In this document: positions 312 through 45,671 of the stretch, piece by piece
Layout: every line of letters begins with the position of its first letter
Position numbering within the stretch: position 1 is the first letter of the stretch
DNA from: a virus
Lineage: Duplodnaviria > Heunggongvirae > Uroviricota > Caudoviricetes
Reading direction: 5' to 3' (one strand)
DNA: 47,202 bases
IMG/VR virus record: IMGVR_UViG_2861038214_000003
Coordinates: 1-47,202 of that record
The notes under the pieces: model-generated
The model's database searches: none
Seen by the model: the letters and a program-made list of their open reading frames with translations, nothing else
Told to the model about the DNA's origin: nothing
Position numbers and translations under genes: made by a program

Positions 312-3300
312 TCAATGTTCGCTTCCTGTTAACTGCCCGACAAGTGCAACCAGTTCGCTTACCTGATTTTCCAGAGTGCTGATCCGGGTGCCTGCTGTTG
401 CCATATTTTTACGTAGCGTTATGTTTTCCTCTTCCAGCGCGGTAACGCGACCATCTGTTTCACGGGCGACCTGAACAAGTAACCCCGTCACGGCGGAGTA
501 GTCAACATTAAGATAGCGAGTTTCTTCGCGTAGCTCGTTGCCGTCAACGGTCGGACCTTGCAACTCTTCACCATAATGAGTAAACGATCCCACAGCTTCA
601 GGTATCGCCTCCATTACTTCCTGTGCAATAACGCCAGCATAAGGCATTCCGTTTTCCTTGAGCGTGTAGGTGTACCCGTTCATTTTACGGATTGCTTTCG
701 TCGCGTCGCTGATAACGCGAATATCGTCTTTAAGGTCGCGGTCTGATGACTGATTCAGCGTTGTGCAATTAATAGCGCCATTTACATCAAACAACTGGCC
801 TGCTGATGTTTTTTGCGCATAAAACAGATACGCAGCAGACGTTCCAACCTCAAAAACGTTTTGTCGATCACTTGATCCCCATACTTTTGCGGCAAATGAT
901 AGTTCTGTATTACCTAAGTTCTGTAAAACAAAACGATTGCCAGTCCCTGATTGCTTTGTAAGGGTTAAATCAACAGTTGAGTTAACCTCATCCTTGTTGA
1001 TAGTGAGCGCCTGCGCTTTAGCCCCGTTAACAGCACCTGTTTTGAGTTGAACCGCGCCGTCATTACCATTTAGCAGTATCTCAGCTCCGCTAAAGAAATT
1101 TTTTAGCGACAGCATCTTACTTACGCCGACTGATGAACCCAACGCCCACGCGAGAGAATTACCGGTGCTATCAAACCCACGTACAAAGCAATCCATTTTG
1201 CTATAGTCTGACGTGCTTCCAAGGACATCAATCCGCCCTCCGCCAGATTTTAACGGGTTAGATGTGGTTAATGACCTGACAGCAAGATCGGTGGATGAAT
1301 TTAGATCGTCTACTGTTAGTAATTTCTTCCATTCCTGCATCGTTCCGTTTTCAACTGTTCTTCCCCAAAAACCGGAATTGCGGCCTCCGAACTGCACAGC
1401 ATAATTTTTACTAAATTGAACATGAATGCCGCCAAGAACCATAGAACCTGCCGGGCCGTTTGTACTGCCTGCGATTGGTCTAAATTTGTCGACGTTATCA
1501 GTATGCTGAGAGTTCCAGTCATGACCTGTTAATGTTGCGATTCCTGAGTTAGCTGTAATTAACCCAGACGCTTTAAGATTTTGCACATCAATTCTGTCGT
1601 TTGCGAAATTATATGCAATTGCGTTACTAACGCTTCCGGCATCATCATAATCGCGTTTCTGAATAAACCAGTCGCCAGCATTAGCAATGAGAGTATAAGT
1701 AGGCGTGTTAGCCGGGCGATCTGTTTCATTAAATCTTATTGCTGGGTTAGCGCTCCTTATTTGTAAAGGTTTTTCAACCGTTGATTTCAGTATCGCACTA
1801 TCTACAATTAAATTACCTTCTGAGTTAAGGTTTAGATATTTTGAAGCACCAGTTGAACCATCGTATGTAAACCTTATTGTTAATTGACCTGGCTCATTTG
1901 ATAAAGTCTCAACATACATATCAGCACCAAGACGCACAGTGCTGTCAGTTGCTAACAGTCTTGTATGGAGAATACCACTAGATGTGTATGTATTGGTCGA
2001 ATCACTATATCTATCAAGAAATAGACTGTTAAGTTGAGGGCTATTACTCCTGCCTAATCCAAGATTCGTTCTGGCACCATCAATAGTTGCCGCACCAGTA
2101 CCACCATGAGAAACATCAAGCGGTATCCATTTTTTTTGTGTGTCGCTGTAACACCCCCATGTTGATCCGGTTAAACCCAGGCGCATGGATTTATCATGGT
2201 TATATAACCATGTTTCGCTATTCCATTGGTCAAGACGGTCCACTTCATTTTTGCGAGCGTGGCGTGTCCATTGCGGGCCTGTTGTCGGATTCCAGCGATA
2301 AGTATAAAGCGAGCGCGTAGCCCATCCCTGAAATACACCTGTATACGCTGGTGTTCCATCTACCTGACTAATAAACCCCGTAAGACTGCTTTCACCGGAT
2401 GCAATCGATGGAAAGCCTTTTGCATTACTCATAATGCGCATAAATCCGATATACCCTGATGGGTTGCCGGAAATATCAGGACAATCACGCGGGGCTGAGC
2501 CAAGACCGATATTATCGCCAACAATTACTTGCGCCTGGTTGCGATAATTAAGTGCGTCCGCCGCAGATTTCGCCGCGTTTGTTTCACTGGATTTAGCATT
2601 AGTTTCGCTGGCTTTAGCGTTTGTTTCGCTGCTCTTTGCTGCTGCCTCGCTATTTTTCGCGTTGGTTTCTGATTTTTTGGCTGCTGTCGCGGAGTTTGCC
2701 GATGCAGTTTGTGAGGCCGCTGCCGCCTGTGCGCTGTTATCCGCATTCGTCTCAGACGTTTTTGCGGCCTTCGCGGAATTTCCTGCCGCCGTTGCCGAGG
2801 AAGCTGCACTACTGGCACTTGATGATGCGTTCGTTTCTGATGATTTCGCTGCCTCTTTTGAGGCCGCCGCATCCCGGGCTGAGGTGGCAGCTTCTGACGC
2901 TTTCGTGGTCGCGGTGGATGCAGAAGTGGCGGCTGATTGTTGTGACGCTGCCGCATTCGTTTCTGACGTTTTCGCCGCACCGGCACTGGTGGCCGCCGCG
3001 CTTTTTGAGGACTCTGCAGCGGCAGCACTTTTTGATGCTTCAGTAGCCTTTGTTGATGCCGTTCCTGCGCTGGAAGACGCTGACTGAGCCGACGACGCGG
3101 CCTGTCCGGCTGACGTGCTGGCTGCGCGTGCTGAGTCTGCAGCATCAGTCGCATGGGTTGCCGCCTCACGGGCTGATGTGCCGGCATCGCCGGCTGACTT
3201 CTTCGCGGCTGCCGTGTTCTGTGCCACCGCGGACGCGTTACGCGCCACCTCTTCCACCATCAGCTCAAAACGGCGCAGTGCCTCCGGACGGACATCATCC

Positions 3301-30662: not shown

Positions 30663-30949
30663 AAATAACCTTCCTTTCTCCAGATTTCTTGTGTGCGAAA
30701 AACACCTTCTGCATGCATCAGGCGTAATTCTTCTTTGGTGTAATCGCTGGTTTTTACCCGCCCGTCGATTAAATCGTGGCATGAGCTACAGGCAATCGCT
30801 GCCTGCATATCGTGTGGTTTTGTCGCTGTTCCGCACGTCCCCGCCAGCCTGTAATGCGCCAGCACAGATGTTTCGGGATTGTGATTGCAGTAGCCAGGAA
30901 TTCTGACGGTGCACATCTGCCCCCGCGCCGCTTTACGTAAATCCACCAT
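30659..30949 (-). CDS. YbcO-like (DUF1364) putative zinc-binding nuclease
   Basis: MVDLRKAARGQMCTVRIPGYCNHNPETSVLAHYRLAG.. resembles DLP12 YbcO as I recall it; Cys-rich. Confidence 0.7.
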   Translation of the reverse strand: MVDLRKAARGQMCTVRIPGYCNHNPETSVLAHYRLAGTCGTATKPHDMQAAIACSSCHDLIDGRVKTSDYTKEELRLMHAEGVFRTQEIWRKEGYL

Positions 30950-31548
30950 TACGCAAACTCCAGCAGCTGCGCGGCCACATTTTCGACTTGTTCCGGAGAG
31001 GAAAATTTACGGAACAGAATCCAGTTCCACAGCACATTCAGAACAGATTTATAAACCTGCTGAAACTCGGTTTCGTCCATATTCGCAAAAGCGATAGATT
31101 TTGCCCGACGCCCGCGGCTACCGTCCGGATAAAAATGTTCGGTGTAAAATCCAGCCTGAATGGTTACCCACTCGCGAAAAGCCTCAAACGACTTTAGCAA
31201 TGCCGTATCCCGGGTTCTGCGTGTCGCAACTGTATTCAGATATTGCTCTGCGGCATCACTCAGGGCTGGCGTGTGTTCCCGACCAACTGATTCGCACAGG
31301 TAATCAACGAAACCAGACAGCAGTTCTCGTTCGCGAGGCGTGATCGCCCCACCGACCGGAGTCCAGTAATCGAATCCCAGTTGCAGGAGTTTGAAAAAAC
31401 GCTTGTGGAATGCGTAGTTACGCACACGCTTAAAGTCTGCGTGTATCCACTCGCCTATTTTGATTTGATGCAGAAAATCACAACTCTCCGGCGTCGCCGG
31501 GAGAAGTAATCCGGAAGAGGTTTGTTTGACCAGTTGTATATGCGCCAT
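30949..31548 (-). CDS. Conserved nin-region phage protein (possibly YbcN/DUF1367-like)
   Basis: 199-aa ORF; TAATG stop/start overlap with the ybcO-like gene. Confidence 0.5.
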   Translation of the reverse strand: MAHIQLVKQTSSGLLLPATPESCDFLHQIKIGEWIHADFKRVRNYAFHKRFFKLLQLGFDYWTPVGGAITPRERELLSGFVDYLCESVGREHTPALSDAAEQYLNTVATRRTRDTALLKSFEAFREWVTIQAGFYTEHFYPDGSRGRRAKSIAFANMDETEFQQVYKSVLNVLWNWILFRKFSSPEQVENVAAQLLEFA

Positions 31549-31820
31549 TTCTTAATCTCTCGATGGCGCAGCGCAGCAGATGCCAGTTGTTCAGGCTGAC
31601 GTATGAAGTATAAATAAACTGGCTCCAGTGTAAAGCCCCACCTTAATGGAATAAAAACCAAACAACAGATTGCTGGGATACAAACAACGCTTATTATTAA
31701 AAGCGGTTAAACAAATTAAATTTTAATGTTATGCAAATCTGCCAGATCACCATAATATCTCATTTGAAAACCGCTGAAATAACAACCCTATTAGGGTTAA
31801 TCATATTAAGGTGAGTAAAT

Positions 31821-31907
31821 ATGGAAAACAACAAATCTGCACATTACGTTCCTTTTTTATCTGTAATACTTTTTGTTTTATGCTGTGCGTGGGCATTATT
31901 TTTATAA
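31821..31907 (+). CDS. 28-aa hydrophobic peptide (candidate small membrane or toxin-like peptide)
   Basis: Strong RBS TAAGGTGAG 7 nt before the ATG; MENNKSAHYVPFLSVILFVLCCAWALFL*; found by hand. Confidence 0.35.
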   Translation: MENNKSAHYVPFLSVILFVLCCAWALFL

Positions 31908-32013
31908 AAATATTCACAGATAAAATATACCCGCCAAAGTTGGTTAAGTGCGGGTGCGTTGAGGATGCCTGACTCATCAGAGGTGGCGAGGGATTTCTCC
32001 CTCGCCTGGTCTC

Positions 32014-32166
32014 TCACTCCTCAGGTTCGTAAGCTGTGAAGACAGCGACCTCCGTCTGACCGGTTCGGATTTGTACCTCGCAGAAGTCTTTCCTTGTTAC
32101 CAGTGCCATCACAACGACGGTAATACAGATGACAATCAGGGCGATTAACATCGTCTTTTGCTGCAT
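32014..32166 (-). CDS. hokD: Hok/Gef-family type I toxin (HokD/RelF-like)
   Basis: Hand translation MQQKTMLIALIVICITVVVMALVTRKDLCEVQIRTGQTEVAVFTAYEPEE* closely matches HokD/RelF from memory; a 9-bp-stem hairpin lies just 3' (31986-32007). Confidence 0.85.
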   Translation of the reverse strand: MQQKTMLIALIVICITVVVMALVTRKDFCEVQIRTGQTEVAVFTAYEPEE

Positions 32167-32314
32167 CACAGCCTACTTACCCTTACCTTTCGTTCAAGCG
32201 GTAAGGTCACTTTTTCTGTTGTGTGCTAACCAACAAACCTCTTTTATCTGCATTAAAAATCGTTATCATGTCATCCTCAACCTGTTAATAGCCTATTATG
32301 GACTTTAGTAAACA

Positions 32315-34144
32315 ATGAGCACTTCCGCATACAAGAGCAAAATTCGAACACTCCAGTGCGCGTTAAAAAACGGTGAATTTGAACCATTCATACAACATAT
32401 CCGTTTTCCATACTTTAAAAATATAGAGCAGAATGCAAGGATCGATTTTCAGTTCCCTATAACGGCTTTAGTAGGAAAAAATGGAACTAATAAAAGTTCT
32501 GTTATCAAAGCGCTATTTGGTTGCCCACATGGTAAAAATATAACTCGTTATTGGTTCACAACTGAAACAGATGAGTTTCCTGACCTAAAACTTGCTGATG
32601 GCAGTTCTCTTAAACCTAGATATATATATGGATATAAAAATGCTGATGGCCGTTTAGTTGAAATACTCCAAGCACGTATCAATGCTACCAAGAAAACAAT
32701 CGATTATTGGGAAACAAGTCGACCATCTGTTGGTGATAACATGGAGAGTATTTCGGATGATCTGGGTGCTAATAGTAATGCAACCAGATGGAAAAAAATC
32801 AAGAAGGGATTGGTTTTCCTAGATTTCAGATCGGAAATAAGTGCATTTGATAGATGTATGTATCACTCTGATTTTAAATTAAGAAAGAAGAAGAGTGGTG
32901 TATTAATTACAAAGCAAGACTATATCAGAAGCAAATCTAAATATATAAAGAAAGCTTTTGATGAAAAGCTAAGTAATTTAAGACTCTGGGGGGCGGAAAC
33001 CATTGTTAAAAATATAACCTTGGCGCCAGAACTAGTTGAGCACGTCTCATTTATATTAGGGAAAAAATATAAAGTCATTAAATTTCTTGAGCATCGGTTA
33101 TTTGGAACCAGAGGAGGAACCGCTTTACTTTCAACTGATAAGTTGAACTATACAGAAGCGTTTGCTGGAAGTGGTGAATTTGCAATAGTTTCACTAATAC
33201 TCAATATTTATTCGGCCAAACCTAATTCATTAATTCTTCTTGACGAACCAGAAGTTTCACTTCACCCTGGTGCACAAAAAAGGATGATGGATGTTCTGTA
33301 CTCTATTGTTGAGCAGAAAAAACATCAAGTGGTAATATCAACCCATTCTCCTGTTATTGTGAACACTCTTCCCAAAGATGCCATTAAATTATTTGTTTTT
33401 GATGAAGAGAGTGAAACAGCTAAAATAGTTCAAAATATAGCACCGGATGAAGCTTTTATAGAGCTAGGGCATGATATTAACAAGAAAACAATAATTGTAG
33501 AAGATAAATTAGCTAAAGCAATTATAGATAAAGCGATTAAAAATGATGAAAGATTAAGCTTATCATTTAGTGTAAGTTATATACCAGGTGGTTCGGAGAC
33601 CATTTTAAGCAAGCATCTTCCCAGTTACGCTGTGGTAGAACGCAATGATATTTTGTTTTTACTTGATGGTGATAAAAACAAAAAAATAAAACCAGTAAGA
33701 ATTAGTGAAATTGCTGATGCTGATTTAGTTAATACAATGTGCAAATATTATGGTTGCGAGTTAATTATCAATGCCAGTGGTAGTAATGGCAAAAAAAATG
33801 AACAAGAATCTAATAGACTCAAAAGGCAAGTGCTTGAGTATGCATTCAATAAAGTGCAGTATTTACCATTTGATACTCCCGAACAATTACTCATTGAAAA
33901 GGCAATTACGCCAAGTGAAAAAGAAATAATTGATTCACAGACCTGGAGTTCTAATGATCCAGAACTGTATAAGAATCAAATAAGATTATTAGCGCAACAC
34001 CTGTATGATAAAGAAGAAGTAAATGCAGAGGAAATTTTTTGCCTCCAACAAATGATGACCGCAAGACTTAAAAATGAATTGCCTGAATTTATAAAAATAA
34101 GAAAAATAATTACTCAGGCTCTTGACCGTGGTATCATTAGGTAG
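32315..34144 (+). CDS. OLD-family ABC-ATPase/TOPRIM nuclease (class 1 OLD-like, or a fused PARIS-like AriA-AriB)
   Basis: Deviant Walker A LVGKNGTNKSS, Walker B with LHP (LILLDEPEVSLHPGA), H-loop VISTHSP, then TOPRIM-like Glu (TIIVEDKLAKA) and DxD (LFLLDGDKNKK); 609 aa, AT-rich. Confidence 0.75.
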   Translation: MSTSAYKSKIRTLQCALKNGEFEPFIQHIRFPYFKNIEQNARIDFQFPITALVGKNGTNKSSVIKALFGCPHGKNITRYWFTTETDEFPDLKLADGSSLKPRYIYGYKNADGRLVEILQARINATKKTIDYWETSRPSVGDNMESISDDLGANSNATRWKKIKKGLVFLDFRSEISAFDRCMYHSDFKLRKKKSGVLITKQDYIRSKSKYIKKAFDEKLSNLRLWGAETIVKNITLAPELVEHVSFILGKKYKVIKFLEHRLFGTRGGTALLSTDKLNYTEAFAGSGEFAIVSLILNIYSAKPNSLILLDEPEVSLHPGAQKRMMDVLYSIVEQKKHQVVISTHSPVIVNTLPKDAIKLFVFDEESETAKIVQNIAPDEAFIELGHDINKKTIIVEDKLAKAIIDKAIKNDERLSLSFSVSYIPGGSETILSKHLPSYAVVERNDILFLLDGDKNKKIKPVRISEIADADLVNTMCKYYGCELIINASGSNGKKNEQESNRLKRQVLEYAFNKVQYLPFDTPEQLLIEKAITPSEKEIIDSQTWSSNDPELYKNQIRLLAQHLYDKEEVNAEEIFCLQQMMTARLKNELPEFIKIRKIITQALDRGIIR

Positions 34145-34167
34145 TGATTCTGGATGCAGAGGGAAAA

Positions 34168-35208
34168 ATGAAAAAAATCAAAGTGTTTGACTTCTTTTCC
34201 GGTTGTGGTGGAACCAGCCAAGGTTTCCATCAAGCTGGAATGGATATTGTTTTTGGCCTCGATTTCGACGTTGATGCAGCCAGTTCATTTCGTGCAAATT
34301 TCCCGCAGGCTGCTTTTATTAACTCGGACATTAGGTTAATCGACAACAATGCCATAAACAAGTTAGTAAAAAAACATCGTAATGATTACATTCTTTTTTC
34401 AGGATGTGCGCCTTGTCAACCGTACTCTAAGCAAAACTCAAATAAGAAAAATGATGATCCACGATTAGATCTATTAAAGGAATTCAGTCGCTTTGTAGAG
34501 CATTATATGCCTGATTTTATTTTTGTTGAAAACGTGCCAGGAATGCAAAAGTTTAACAAAAATGAAGGAACATTCATGATGTTTTTAGAAATGCTTTCAT
34601 CAAAGGGATATAGTGTAGATTATAAAGTAATGCCAGCTGCGTGGTACGGTGTACCACAGACGCGAGAAAGATTAGTGCTCATTGCATCCAAGGATTTTTA
34701 TGTCGCATTGCCTTCTCCTACACATGGGGTTGGAAATACTCCCTATTCAACAGTAAAGGACTGGATCGCTAATTTACCGAAGATAGAAGCAGGAGAAAAG
34801 CATAATAGTATTCCTGATCATGAAGCTGCACGCTTATCAGAGCTTAATTTACGTAGAATAAAATGCACTCCTGAAGGTGGAAGTCGAGAATTTTGGCCAG
34901 ATGAATTGATTTTAGAATGCCATCGTAACCATAAAGGGCATACAGACGTATATGGACGTTTGAGTTGGGACAAACCAGCCAGCGGACTAACAACTCGTTG
35001 TATTAGCTATTCAAATGGACGTTTTGGACATCCAACACAAAATCGAGCAATATCGGTTCGTGAAGCAGCGTGTCTACAAACATTTCCTTTGGATTATAAA
35101 TTTATTGGTTCTTTGCAATCTCGGGCTCGTCAAATAGGAAATGCGGTCCCTCCGAAGATGTCTGAAACGATTGGAAAACATTTGCTTAATATAATCAAAG
35201 CCTCCTAG
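34168..35208 (+). CDS. DNA (cytosine-5)-methyltransferase (Dcm-type)
   Basis: Motif I FDFFSGCGG, motif IV GCAPCQPYS, motif VI FVENVPG, motif VIII QTRERL, motif X GNAVPP; GAGGG RBS before the ATG at 34168 (the ORF track start at 34144 is GTG). Confidence 0.95.
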   Translation: MKKIKVFDFFSGCGGTSQGFHQAGMDIVFGLDFDVDAASSFRANFPQAAFINSDIRLIDNNAINKLVKKHRNDYILFSGCAPCQPYSKQNSNKKNDDPRLDLLKEFSRFVEHYMPDFIFVENVPGMQKFNKNEGTFMMFLEMLSSKGYSVDYKVMPAAWYGVPQTRERLVLIASKDFYVALPSPTHGVGNTPYSTVKDWIANLPKIEAGEKHNSIPDHEAARLSELNLRRIKCTPEGGSREFWPDELILECHRNHKGHTDVYGRLSWDKPASGLTTRCISYSNGRFGHPTQNRAISVREAACLQTFPLDYKFIGSLQSRARQIGNAVPPKMSETIGKHLLNIIKAS

Positions 35209-45274: not shown

Positions 45275-45469
45275 ATGAGATATGACAATGTTAAACCATG
45301 TCCATTTTGTGGTTGTCCATCAGTAACGGTGAAAGCCATTTCAGGATATTACCGAGCGAAGTGTAACGGATGCGAATCCCGAACCGGTTATGGTGGAAGT
45401 GAAAAAGAAGCACTCGAAAGATGGAATAAACGAACCACTGGAAATAATAATGGAGGTGTTCATGTATAA
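45275..45469 (+). CDS. ralR: RalR, type I toxin (DNase)/restriction alleviation protein
   Basis: MRYDNVKPCPFCGCPSVTVKAISGYYRAKCNGCESRTGYGGSEKEALERWNKRTTGNNNGGVHV (64 aa). Confidence 0.85.
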   Translation: MRYDNVKPCPFCGCPSVTVKAISGYYRAKCNGCESRTGYGGSEKEALERWNKRTTGNNNGGVHV

Positions 45470-45671
45470 AATTACCGCCACTATTGAAAAGGAAGGTGGC
45501 ACTCCTACTAACTGGACAAGATATTCAAAATCTAAACTAACGAAATCAGAATGCGAAAAAATGCTCTCAGGTAAAAAAGAAGCAGGCGTTTCCAGAGAGC
45601 AGAAAGTAAAACTGATAAATTTTAATTGCGAGAAACTTCAGTCCTCGAGAATTGCATTGTATTCAAATTAA
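45462..45671 (+). CDS. ydaC: YdaC-like small protein
   Basis: GGAGG RBS; MYKITATIEKEGGTPTNWTRYSK.. (69 aa); start overlaps the ralR end. Confidence 0.7.
   Translation: MYKITATIEKEGGTPTNWTRYSKSKLTKSECEKMLSGKKEAGVSREQKVKLINFNCEKLQSSRIALYSN

Follow-up and report, generated by a model that had tools for sequence, protein, structure and literature searches.

A conserved 28-codon gene for a predicted membrane peptide on a moron-like cassette of Rac/Qin-type lambdoid prophages

Introduction

The hallmarks of a moron are its own promoter and terminator, a deviant guanine-plus-cytosine (GC) content and expression from the repressed prophage (Juhala/Hendrix; PMC3594210). Among the closest described systems to the locus considered here is gp15 of phage HK97, a small inner-membrane protein encoded by a moron and responsible for superinfection exclusion (PMC3594210). 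Small membrane proteins of Escherichia coli of fewer than 50 residues, such as MgtS, AcrZ, KdpF, PmrR and YohP, bind and modulate larger membrane proteins, and the prophage protein DicB is their soluble functional analogue (PMC6832061). The toxins of type I toxin-antitoxin systems (Hok/Gef, Ibs, ShoB, DinQ, TisB, ZorO and Ldr) form the third group. The subject of the present work is a small open reading frame (sORF) of 28 codons in a stretch of DNA of 47,202 nucleotides (nt) from a virus of the class Caudoviricetes (IMG/VR record IMGVR_UViG_2861038214_000003, positions 1 to 47,202), the whole of which is referred to below as the window. The reading frame was found to be conserved in related prophages in a manner that points to a genuine protein-coding gene, situated on a cassette with the features of a moron.

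The cassette resembles morons of the HK97 gp15 type as independent extra DNA of deviant GC content in a lambdoid prophage, apparently with its own promoter, in an orientation allowing expression from the repressed prophage, with varied positions and neighbours in related phages and with a small membrane-embedded product, predicted as such for the sORF. In contrast to gp15, which is related to the YebO family, the sORF peptide is far shorter and has no cellular homologue; there is no sequence similarity between the two, the terminator of the cassette is not clearly its own, and exclusion is suggested for the sORF peptide by analogy. With the class of MgtS, AcrZ, KdpF, PmrR and YohP the peptide shares the size, a single hydrophobic helix, several invariant helix residues and the fact of being overlooked by annotation owing to its length, but its gene belongs to a mobile cassette of prophages and not to a host operon, its helix reaches the very C-terminus, and no homology to these proteins was found. 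Type I toxins are likewise short hydrophobic peptides of prophages or islands with an upstream region more strongly conserved than the ORF; the sORF differs from them in the absence of a family match, of a convincing cis antisense RNA, of stable occlusion of the ribosome-binding site and of tandem copies.

Conservation and Coding Potential of the sORF

The sORF, its translation signal and the conserved DNA around it are as follows.

31821–31907, plus strand: the sORF, 28 codons followed by TAA, with an ATG start, encoding MENNKSAHYVPFLSVILFVLCCAWALFL (read from the sequence).
31807–31815, plus strand: Shine–Dalgarno sequence TAAGGTGAG, 5 nt before the ATG (read from the sequence).
31688–31910, plus strand: the whole conserved cassette of about 220 bp and 29% GC, comprising an upstream control region and the sORF (from homology among clades with unrelated flanks).
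31689–31737, plus strand: near-invariant AT-rich block CTTATTATTAAAAGCGrTTArAyAAATTAAATTTTAATGTTATGmAA (from per-column conservation in 83 unique sequences).

The initial annotation of this DNA had proposed an unannotated 28-amino-acid peptide with a strong ribosome-binding site at this place. Its coordinates, start, stop and translation were confirmed exactly, and the AGGTGA core of the Shine–Dalgarno sequence is complementary to the 3' end of 16S rRNA. Strong sequestration of the Shine–Dalgarno sequence is not predicted, and none of the predicted sequestration is stable. Taken alone, an ORF of 28 codons is not beyond chance, since 73 ORFs of at least 20 amino acids overlap the surrounding 5 kb; it is conservation that lifts the sORF above this background.

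The comparison comprised about 285 related loci (E. coli, E. ruysiae, Shigella, IMG/VR and metagenomes), and the start, the stop and 28 codons are retained without indels in each except one. Lack of a conserved frame across related prophages had been named in the initial annotation as evidence against the peptide; the frame proved to be intact in 209/209 loci from E. coli genomes, E. ruysiae, S. flexneri and IMG/VR (16 peptide and 20 DNA variants) and in 75/76 metagenome loci, the remaining one ending at a contig edge. Intactness holds down to 71% peptide and about 72% DNA identity. In representatives of the classes with 93%, 89% and 72% identity, neither the ATG nor the TAA nor the length is altered and no indel occurs in the frame; the upstream region does have indels. 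The loci came from several searches: a scan of one genome per species revealed the sORF only in E. ruysiae and S. flexneri, IMG/VR yielded 194 confirmed loci, and a degenerate DNA pattern covering the first 41 nt only yielded at least 119 stretches. The 3' half is intact in all 119 loci ascertained through the first 41 nt only, and the ATG and N-terminus are kept in all 76 metagenome loci ascertained via patterns of the middle and C-terminal parts.

The 39 distinct single-nucleotide variants (SNVs) fall mainly in the third codon position (22, 10 and 7 at positions 3, 2 and 1, respectively). Synonymous SNVs account for 19 of them against 8.2 expected under random placement, a value reached in 0 of 20,000 randomisations (reference background). 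The ratio of nonsynonymous to synonymous substitution rates (dN/dS), calculated by the Nei–Gojobori method for divergent pairs (at least 16 differences), is 0.13–0.46. In the other five frames, 5–14 changes are synonymous and some or all variants are interrupted by stops, so that the sORF frame alone is open throughout. The distribution of SNVs over codon positions, the synonymous excess, the dN/dS values and the closure of the other frames all indicate that the reading frame is under purifying selection. As judged from sequence conservation, the sORF is a genuine protein-coding gene selected at the amino-acid level.

An alternative plus-strand frame (GTG at 31811, 53 amino acids) and both long minus-strand ORFs were rejected, as they overrun the homology boundary and contain stops in other variants. 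Directly upstream of the sORF and in frame with it, a 27-codon ORF, MQICQITIISHLKTAEITTLLGLIILR, is located at 31731–31814 (+), separated by TGA and two codons; its frame is not conserved in clade 2, because it spans a poorly conserved, indel-containing part of the leader.

Predicted Properties of the Peptide

Residues 1–8 of the peptide are polar, with a mean Kyte–Doolittle value of −1.8, and residues 10–28 (19 amino acids) are hydrophobic, with a mean of +2.6 and no charged residue in any variant. The polar N-terminus and single transmembrane-like segment described earlier are thus borne out, and the hydrophobic stretch is long enough to span the bilayer, as in a single-pass membrane protein. 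Residues M1, N3, N4, H8, P11, F12, S14, I16, F18, C21, W24, F27 and L28 are invariant in the 20 peptide variants compared; F12S was found in one metagenome locus outside this comparison. By prediction, the product is a small membrane peptide with a polar N-terminus of 8–10 residues and a hydrophobic helix reaching the C-terminus.

No match to the peptide was found in Pfam at E ≤ 10, NCBIfam and PHROGs gave only lipoprotein- or spanin-like noise (E about 0.2), and PADLOC gave no match. The resemblance to the Ibs, ShoB and DinQ-like families suggested in the initial annotation does not extend to membership, as no match at E ≤ 0.1 was obtained in Pfam, NCBIfam, PHROGs or PADLOC. The small membrane regulator, named there as an alternative, fits the data at least as well as a type I toxin.

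Cassette Boundaries and Genome Context

Homology between cassettes starts at CTTATTATTAAAA (window position 31688) and stops at the stop codon of the sORF. These boundaries are defined by clade 2, by the context with iteS and by two loci, one beside an IS2 transposase gene (L185) and the other about 1.2 kb from a tail-fibre gene (L198). The GC content is 0.29 in the cassette, compared with 0.50 in the DUF1367 gene, 0.49 in hok and 0.47 in the whole window. The gap free of annotated genes that contains the sORF (31549–32013, 465 nt) has a GC content of 0.38, in agreement with the earlier description of a gene-free AT-rich stretch. The neighbouring features in the window are the following.

30949–31548, minus strand: DUF1367 phage gene (annotation of the identical region of E. 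coli ATCC 8739).
32014–32169, minus strand: Hok/Gef toxin gene, outside the cassette and listed for context only (PGAP annotation of the identical ATCC 8739 region).
31929–31955, minus strand: 3'-terminal hairpin ACCCGC...GCGGGT of the convergent hok transcript and, after it on the minus strand, TATATTTTAT (read from the sequence).

The hok gene is convergent to the sORF, with 107 nt between the stops. The hairpin belongs to hok and not to the cassette, and a transcript of the sORF would run into it. The segment is identical in E. coli ATCC 8739, where it lies beside trkG; PGAP annotates the neighbours and nothing at the sORF.

An intact convergent hok gene is present in 68 of the 106 distinct contexts of the cassette, a 3' remnant of hok in 13, and neither in 25. 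The proximity to hok, to which the initial annotation drew attention, therefore holds in the window and in the majority of contexts and is not obligatory. Neighbours in the 25 hok-free contexts include DUF1971, IteS peptidase and insertion sequence (IS) elements, and a tail-fibre region was also seen downstream. The promoter-proximal neighbour is DUF1367 in most loci and a 92-amino-acid hypothetical protein with DUF968 in others. In the iteS context, the sORF is followed by a different, bidirectional terminator, AAACCCGCTACAGCGGGTTTGATTT. The hokD gene of K-12 is found without the sORF, and rem occupies that place.

A prophage of E. coli O157:H7 is collinear with the window on both sides (DUF1367 leader and hok-type hairpin) and lacks the cassette: the hok-type hairpin region directly abuts the DUF1367 flank, the interval being about 40 nt versus about 330 nt in the window (31598–31928). 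The several different neighbours and the absence from this collinear prophage suggest that the cassette behaves as a moron, mobile between contexts in Rac/Qin-type lambdoid prophages of Escherichia and Shigella. Two of the hallmarks of a moron were found, namely, extra DNA between genes adjacent in relatives and a deviant base composition.

The AT-rich block at 31689–31737 is more conserved than the sORF itself in the 83 unique sequences. It occurs in 1176 genomes (1240 places) versus 1187 genomes (1255 places) for the sORF, which is essentially one set, so the block never accompanies other cargo. This block is probably a promoter, an UP element or a 5' leader.

A match to RalA together with ydaT and ydaV genes marks the element as a Rac-type lambdoid prophage. 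The RalA small RNA (sRNA), the antitoxin of the RalR type I system, is full-length (45468–45646, minus strand; Rfam RF02694, 225 bits), and the prophage in the window is more complete than the Rac prophage of K-12.

The cassette sits on the margin of a variable island whose defence and toxin cargo includes hok, IteS, AbiH and a pair made up of an OLD/Gabija-like ATPase and a C5 methyltransferase. Beyond hok, at 32315–35208 (+), the genes of the 609-amino-acid ATPase and the C5 cytosine methyltransferase overlap by one base, on the strand opposite to that of the early operon of the phage. Among defence models, the ATPase matches those of the OLD/Gabija/PtuA-like type (PADLOC HEC-04, 1.7e-34; ATPase-Toprim, 2.8e-26), and the methyltransferase matches MTase_II (1.4e-96); the two look like a defence pair. 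This slot appears to be a cargo hotspot, since IteS, AbiH or DUF1971 are found there in other prophages.

Two further observations concern the hok side of the locus. In two of the 13 contexts with a hok remnant, those in which the junction was inspected (IMG/VR loci L013 and L014), an IS end, ATAAGCGCTAACTTAAGGGTTG, which we take to be IS186-like, is located about 60 nt past the sORF stop, inside the GC-rich hairpin of the hok 3' untranslated region (UTR), leaving the sORF cassette intact and separated from hok. In the cassette-less prophage of E. coli O157:H7 F7349 (L288), an unannotated hydrophobic ORF of 40 amino acids, MLLLHCCVVWDLLHHSGVGISSSLFILLIVQQADNRELLA, occupies the place of hok (1844–1966, minus strand) upstream of the hok-type terminator hairpin and may encode a diverged or decayed Hok-like toxin.

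Expression Signals

Candidates for plus-strand promoters were obtained with a simple position-weight matrix; TSS denotes the predicted transcription start site.

31670–31697, plus strand: candidate promoter A, TTGCTG-16-TATTAT, −10 at 31692–97, TSS about 31704 (best weight score in clade 1, 6.9–9.5 bits).
31731–36 (−35 ATGCAA) and 31753–58 (−10 TAATAT), plus strand: candidate promoter B, ATGMAA-16-TAAYAT, TSS near 31765 (weight matrix).
31726–31758, plus strand: 33-nt imperfect palindrome ATGTTATG-N17-CATAAYAT, of invariant length, in 19 distinct forms.

Candidate B is the sole promoter-like site at an equal position in all clades; its spacer is fixed in length and variable in sequence. It is preceded by an invariant A/T tract, which could be an UP element, and its hexamers sit in the arms of the 33-nt palindrome. 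The inner arms of the palindrome differ by clade yet remain complementary (ATCTG/CAGAT, AAAAG/CTTTT, AAAG/CTTT). Over the 19 forms, 85% of cells are paired versus 21–48% in slid controls, and three pairs change on both sides; the covariation score is reached by 3 of 500 shuffles. The asymmetry between G–U and A–C pairs favours a plus-strand RNA in the outer stem and is mixed in the inner stem. The palindrome may represent either a hairpin of the 5' UTR, which would favour candidate A, or promoter/operator architecture, which would favour candidate B.

The Shine–Dalgarno sequence varies between clades, being AAGGTGAG in the window, AAAGTGAG in the clade containing CFT073, and AAGGTGG or AAGGTAG elsewhere. 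A hairpin just upstream of it, at 31783–31799, is not conserved. A clear terminator after the sORF is present in the iteS context only.

The consensus scan of the minus strand revealed two promoter-like and three terminator-like sites. Upstream of DUF1367, three minus-strand terminator-like hairpins are located within 31621–31799, compared with 0.4 expected by shuffling, and a sigma-70-like site, TTTACA-16-TATACT (31634→31607, minus strand), is situated just before DUF1367. These hairpins and this site may be terminators and a promoter of the nin-region type, controlling access to the Q-like DUF1133 gene. The hairpins 31799–31783 and 31705–31688 are not conserved as structures in clade 2. A minus-strand match resembling the lambda boxA, CGCTTTTA, was dropped, because the match is degraded in clade 2 and lacks a boxB after it.

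A further minus-strand promoter-like site, TTTCCA-16-TATGAT (31827→31800), is present in clade 1, and a similar −10 of the form xATxAT was found in the 89% clade. In clade 2, the best minus-strand site is about 50 nt away, and the site at 31827→31800 is not among the top ones. The candidate plus- and minus-strand RNAs fold unremarkably compared with shuffled sequences (z −0.7 and −1.5), and Rfam gave only noise for the cassette, including a Phe-leader match with E=4. The search for an antisense sRNA, proposed in the initial annotation as a check, gave neither a positionally conserved antisense promoter or terminator nor an unusually structured RNA.

Occurrence in Genomes and Annotation Status

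A 236-nt query around the sORF matched 1187 of 5426 complete E. coli genomes (about 22%) with identities from 100% to about 71%, and no annotated feature lies under the sORF among the matches listed. The cassette is single-copy in most genomes. The sORF was found in the uropathogenic strain CFT073 (NC_004431.1, complement(1338563..1338649), between hokD and the 92-amino-acid hypothetical protein), in the Crooks strain ATCC 8739, in derivatives of E. coli W and, unannotated, in four sequenced E. coli phages.

The six commonest 28-amino-acid variants have no exact copy in a collection of 15 billion proteins. A library of 1.84 billion representative proteins was searched with the 30-residue in-frame stretch consisting of VN and the peptide, and two relatives only were found. 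P0001 is a stop-loss fusion of 58 amino acids with the upstream frame and has lost the in-frame TGA that lies three codons upstream (...ILRGVNMENNK...), and P0002 carries a frameshift after residue 20 and has 36 amino acids. Both are longer variants, so gene callers evidently see the locus only when it is lengthened; they also show that disrupted copies or sequencing errors occur occasionally. Annotation pipelines miss the sORF because it is shorter than 30 codons, and small-protein surveys of K-12 did not find it because it is absent from K-12.

A full-text literature search for the peptide string gave no match, nor was the sORF matched in the consulted part of the supplement on sORFs of strain Sakai. 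Ribosome profiling (Ribo-seq) of CFT073 reports 15 intergenic membrane sORFs (GSE301040; preprint 10.64898/2026.09.28.754932); two novel peptides named in this preprint, SMP3 (108 nt) and SMP7 (192 nt), are not the sORF. Prophage morons with genes for small membrane proteins are a known kind of object; the sORF family itself is new.

Discussion

The results are consistent with a genuine membrane-peptide gene on a moron cassette, the product of which would be an inner-membrane peptide expressed in the lysogen and acting through its helix on a membrane target; this general reading is considered moderately probable. The cassette would be transcribed from its own promoter within 31688–31800. The sORF lies on the strand opposite to that of the early-right operon of the phage, in which the replication genes are followed by hok, DUF1367, DUF1364 and the Q-like DUF1133; with this orientation the gene would be expected to be active in the lysogen and, after induction, to be shut off by transcription from the opposite direction. 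Since translation of so short a peptide would terminate before any of it emerges from the ribosome, insertion into the inner membrane would be post-translational, and the peptide would then act on its target through the transmembrane helix. A membrane function beneficial to the lysogen is the most likely role, since the cassette borders the island of defence and toxin cargo. By analogy with HK97 gp15 or DicB, this could be the exclusion of superinfecting phages or the modulation of a host membrane protein rather than that of an addiction toxin. Any such specific role of the peptide, possibly phage exclusion, carries a much lower probability than the general reading.

A number of observations weigh against this explanation. 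Transcription, translation and membrane insertion of the sORF are all inferred from the DNA. The consensus scan detected no plus-strand promoter; candidate A has an invariant −10 TATTAT, but the cassette does not include its −35, which an 8-nt insertion shifts out of place in clade 2, and candidate B is weak (3.5–5.8 bits). No clean plus-strand terminator was found after the sORF in hok-adjacent contexts. The dN/dS values over 28 codons correspond to moderate constraint, the frameshifted 36-amino-acid variant P0002 is present in a public protein set, and the variable positions show no significant helical periodicity that would mark a conserved interaction face (P=0.20). Finally, a short hydrophobic prophage peptide beside hok has exactly the look of a type I toxin.

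A bolder version, regarded as rather unlikely, is that the cassette represents a minimal mobile defence or addiction unit, the peptide being either a 28-residue blocker of phage DNA entry or the toxin of an unrecognised type I family with an RNA partner in the invariant leader. If true, an entry-blocking peptide would be among the smallest exclusion factors, and in either version a hotspot of defence genes in Rac/Qin-type prophages would have the cassette as its constant edge.

The alternative that survives best, and that is judged unlikely, is a new type I toxin-antitoxin module with the sORF encoding the toxin. An antisense sRNA transcribed from the cassette against the 5' leader would silence the mRNA, the peptide would damage the inner membrane, and the conserved leader with the hairpin would serve either as the target of the antitoxin or for ribosome standby. 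The size, hydrophobicity and prophage location of the peptide fit such a module, hok adjoins it, and RalR/RalA is present within the same prophage. The upstream block, more conserved than the sORF and with its hairpin or palindrome, is reminiscent of tisB, zorO and dinQ with their long, conserved 5' UTRs, and an RNA antisense to the leader would originate at the minus-strand site 31827→31800. However, no toxin model of Pfam, NCBIfam or PADLOC matches the peptide, and that site is not at the same position in clade 2. The corresponding minus-strand hairpin is weak (−0.6 to −5 kcal/mol), with A–C mismatches in the commonest variants, and a stable conserved terminator was not found. The RNA folds are unremarkable, and Rfam gave nothing. 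The Shine–Dalgarno sequence is strong and not stably sequestered, and the single-copy state in most genomes contrasts with the tandem ibs, ldr and zor loci. A toxin mechanism for the sORF peptide thus remains unproven, the sequence evidence neither supporting nor excluding it.

It is very unlikely that the sORF is a cis-acting element with an irrelevant product, the translation or read-through of which regulates what lies downstream, either by antisense interference with hok or as a leader for DUF1971, the ATPase–methyltransferase pair or AbiH. Read-through into hok antisense is possible, as no plus-strand T-tract follows the hairpin in hok-adjacent contexts; hok or its 3' end is immediately downstream in 81 of the 106 contexts, and in clade 2 a plus-strand DUF1971 gene is located about 450 nt downstream. 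Yet purifying selection at the amino-acid level would be unexpected if only the act of translation or transcription mattered. The downstream cargo varies in identity and strand, IteS being convergent and separated by a good bidirectional terminator, and, with homology reaching no further than the stop codon, there is no conserved attenuator. A reading as a leader peptide with an attenuator was rejected: the inverted repeat TTTTATCTGT / ACAGATAAAA (the sORF with 31917–31926) is not conserved, and the Phe-leader match in Rfam is noise.

Still less probable is the absence of a gene, in which case the conserved DNA would serve the minus-strand early-right operon through terminators and a promoter upstream of DUF1367, as in the lambda nin region, the frame being incidental. 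The excess of minus-strand terminator-like hairpins, the good minus-strand site TTTACA-16-TATACT and the stronger conservation of the upstream block are in line with this, but a minus-strand signal leaves unexplained the codon-position bias and the zero indels and stops in about 285 loci. Moreover, clade 2 does not preserve the structure of two of the hairpins, the hairpin at 31637–31621 and the minus-strand promoter lie outside the cassette, and the collinear prophage manages without the whole segment.

A lipoprotein precursor with a signal peptide ending in a lipobox at C21, which would leave a lipopeptide of 7–8 residues, was ruled out as hardly conceivable: C21 is invariant, clade 2 has LFAC or FAGC at the Cys, and Lp6.6 (E=0.21) and an Rz-like spanin (E=0.24) gave weak matches, but these are far below the cut-offs, the specificity of LspA requires G, A or S at −1 of the lipobox, this position is L/F/C/S/G across the variants with F-V-L before C21 in the window, and the pattern [LVI][ASTVI][GAS]C is absent from the peptide.

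Conclusions

The sORF, predicted to encode a membrane peptide, adds a conserved, selected gene to the pan-genome of E. coli, with the model uropathogen CFT073 among the carriers. In lambdoid prophages it borders on a variable island in which defence and toxin genes are carried, and this location makes it a cheap and well-defined candidate for a membrane function expressed in the lysogen, which may be that of an exclusion factor, a toxin or a regulator.

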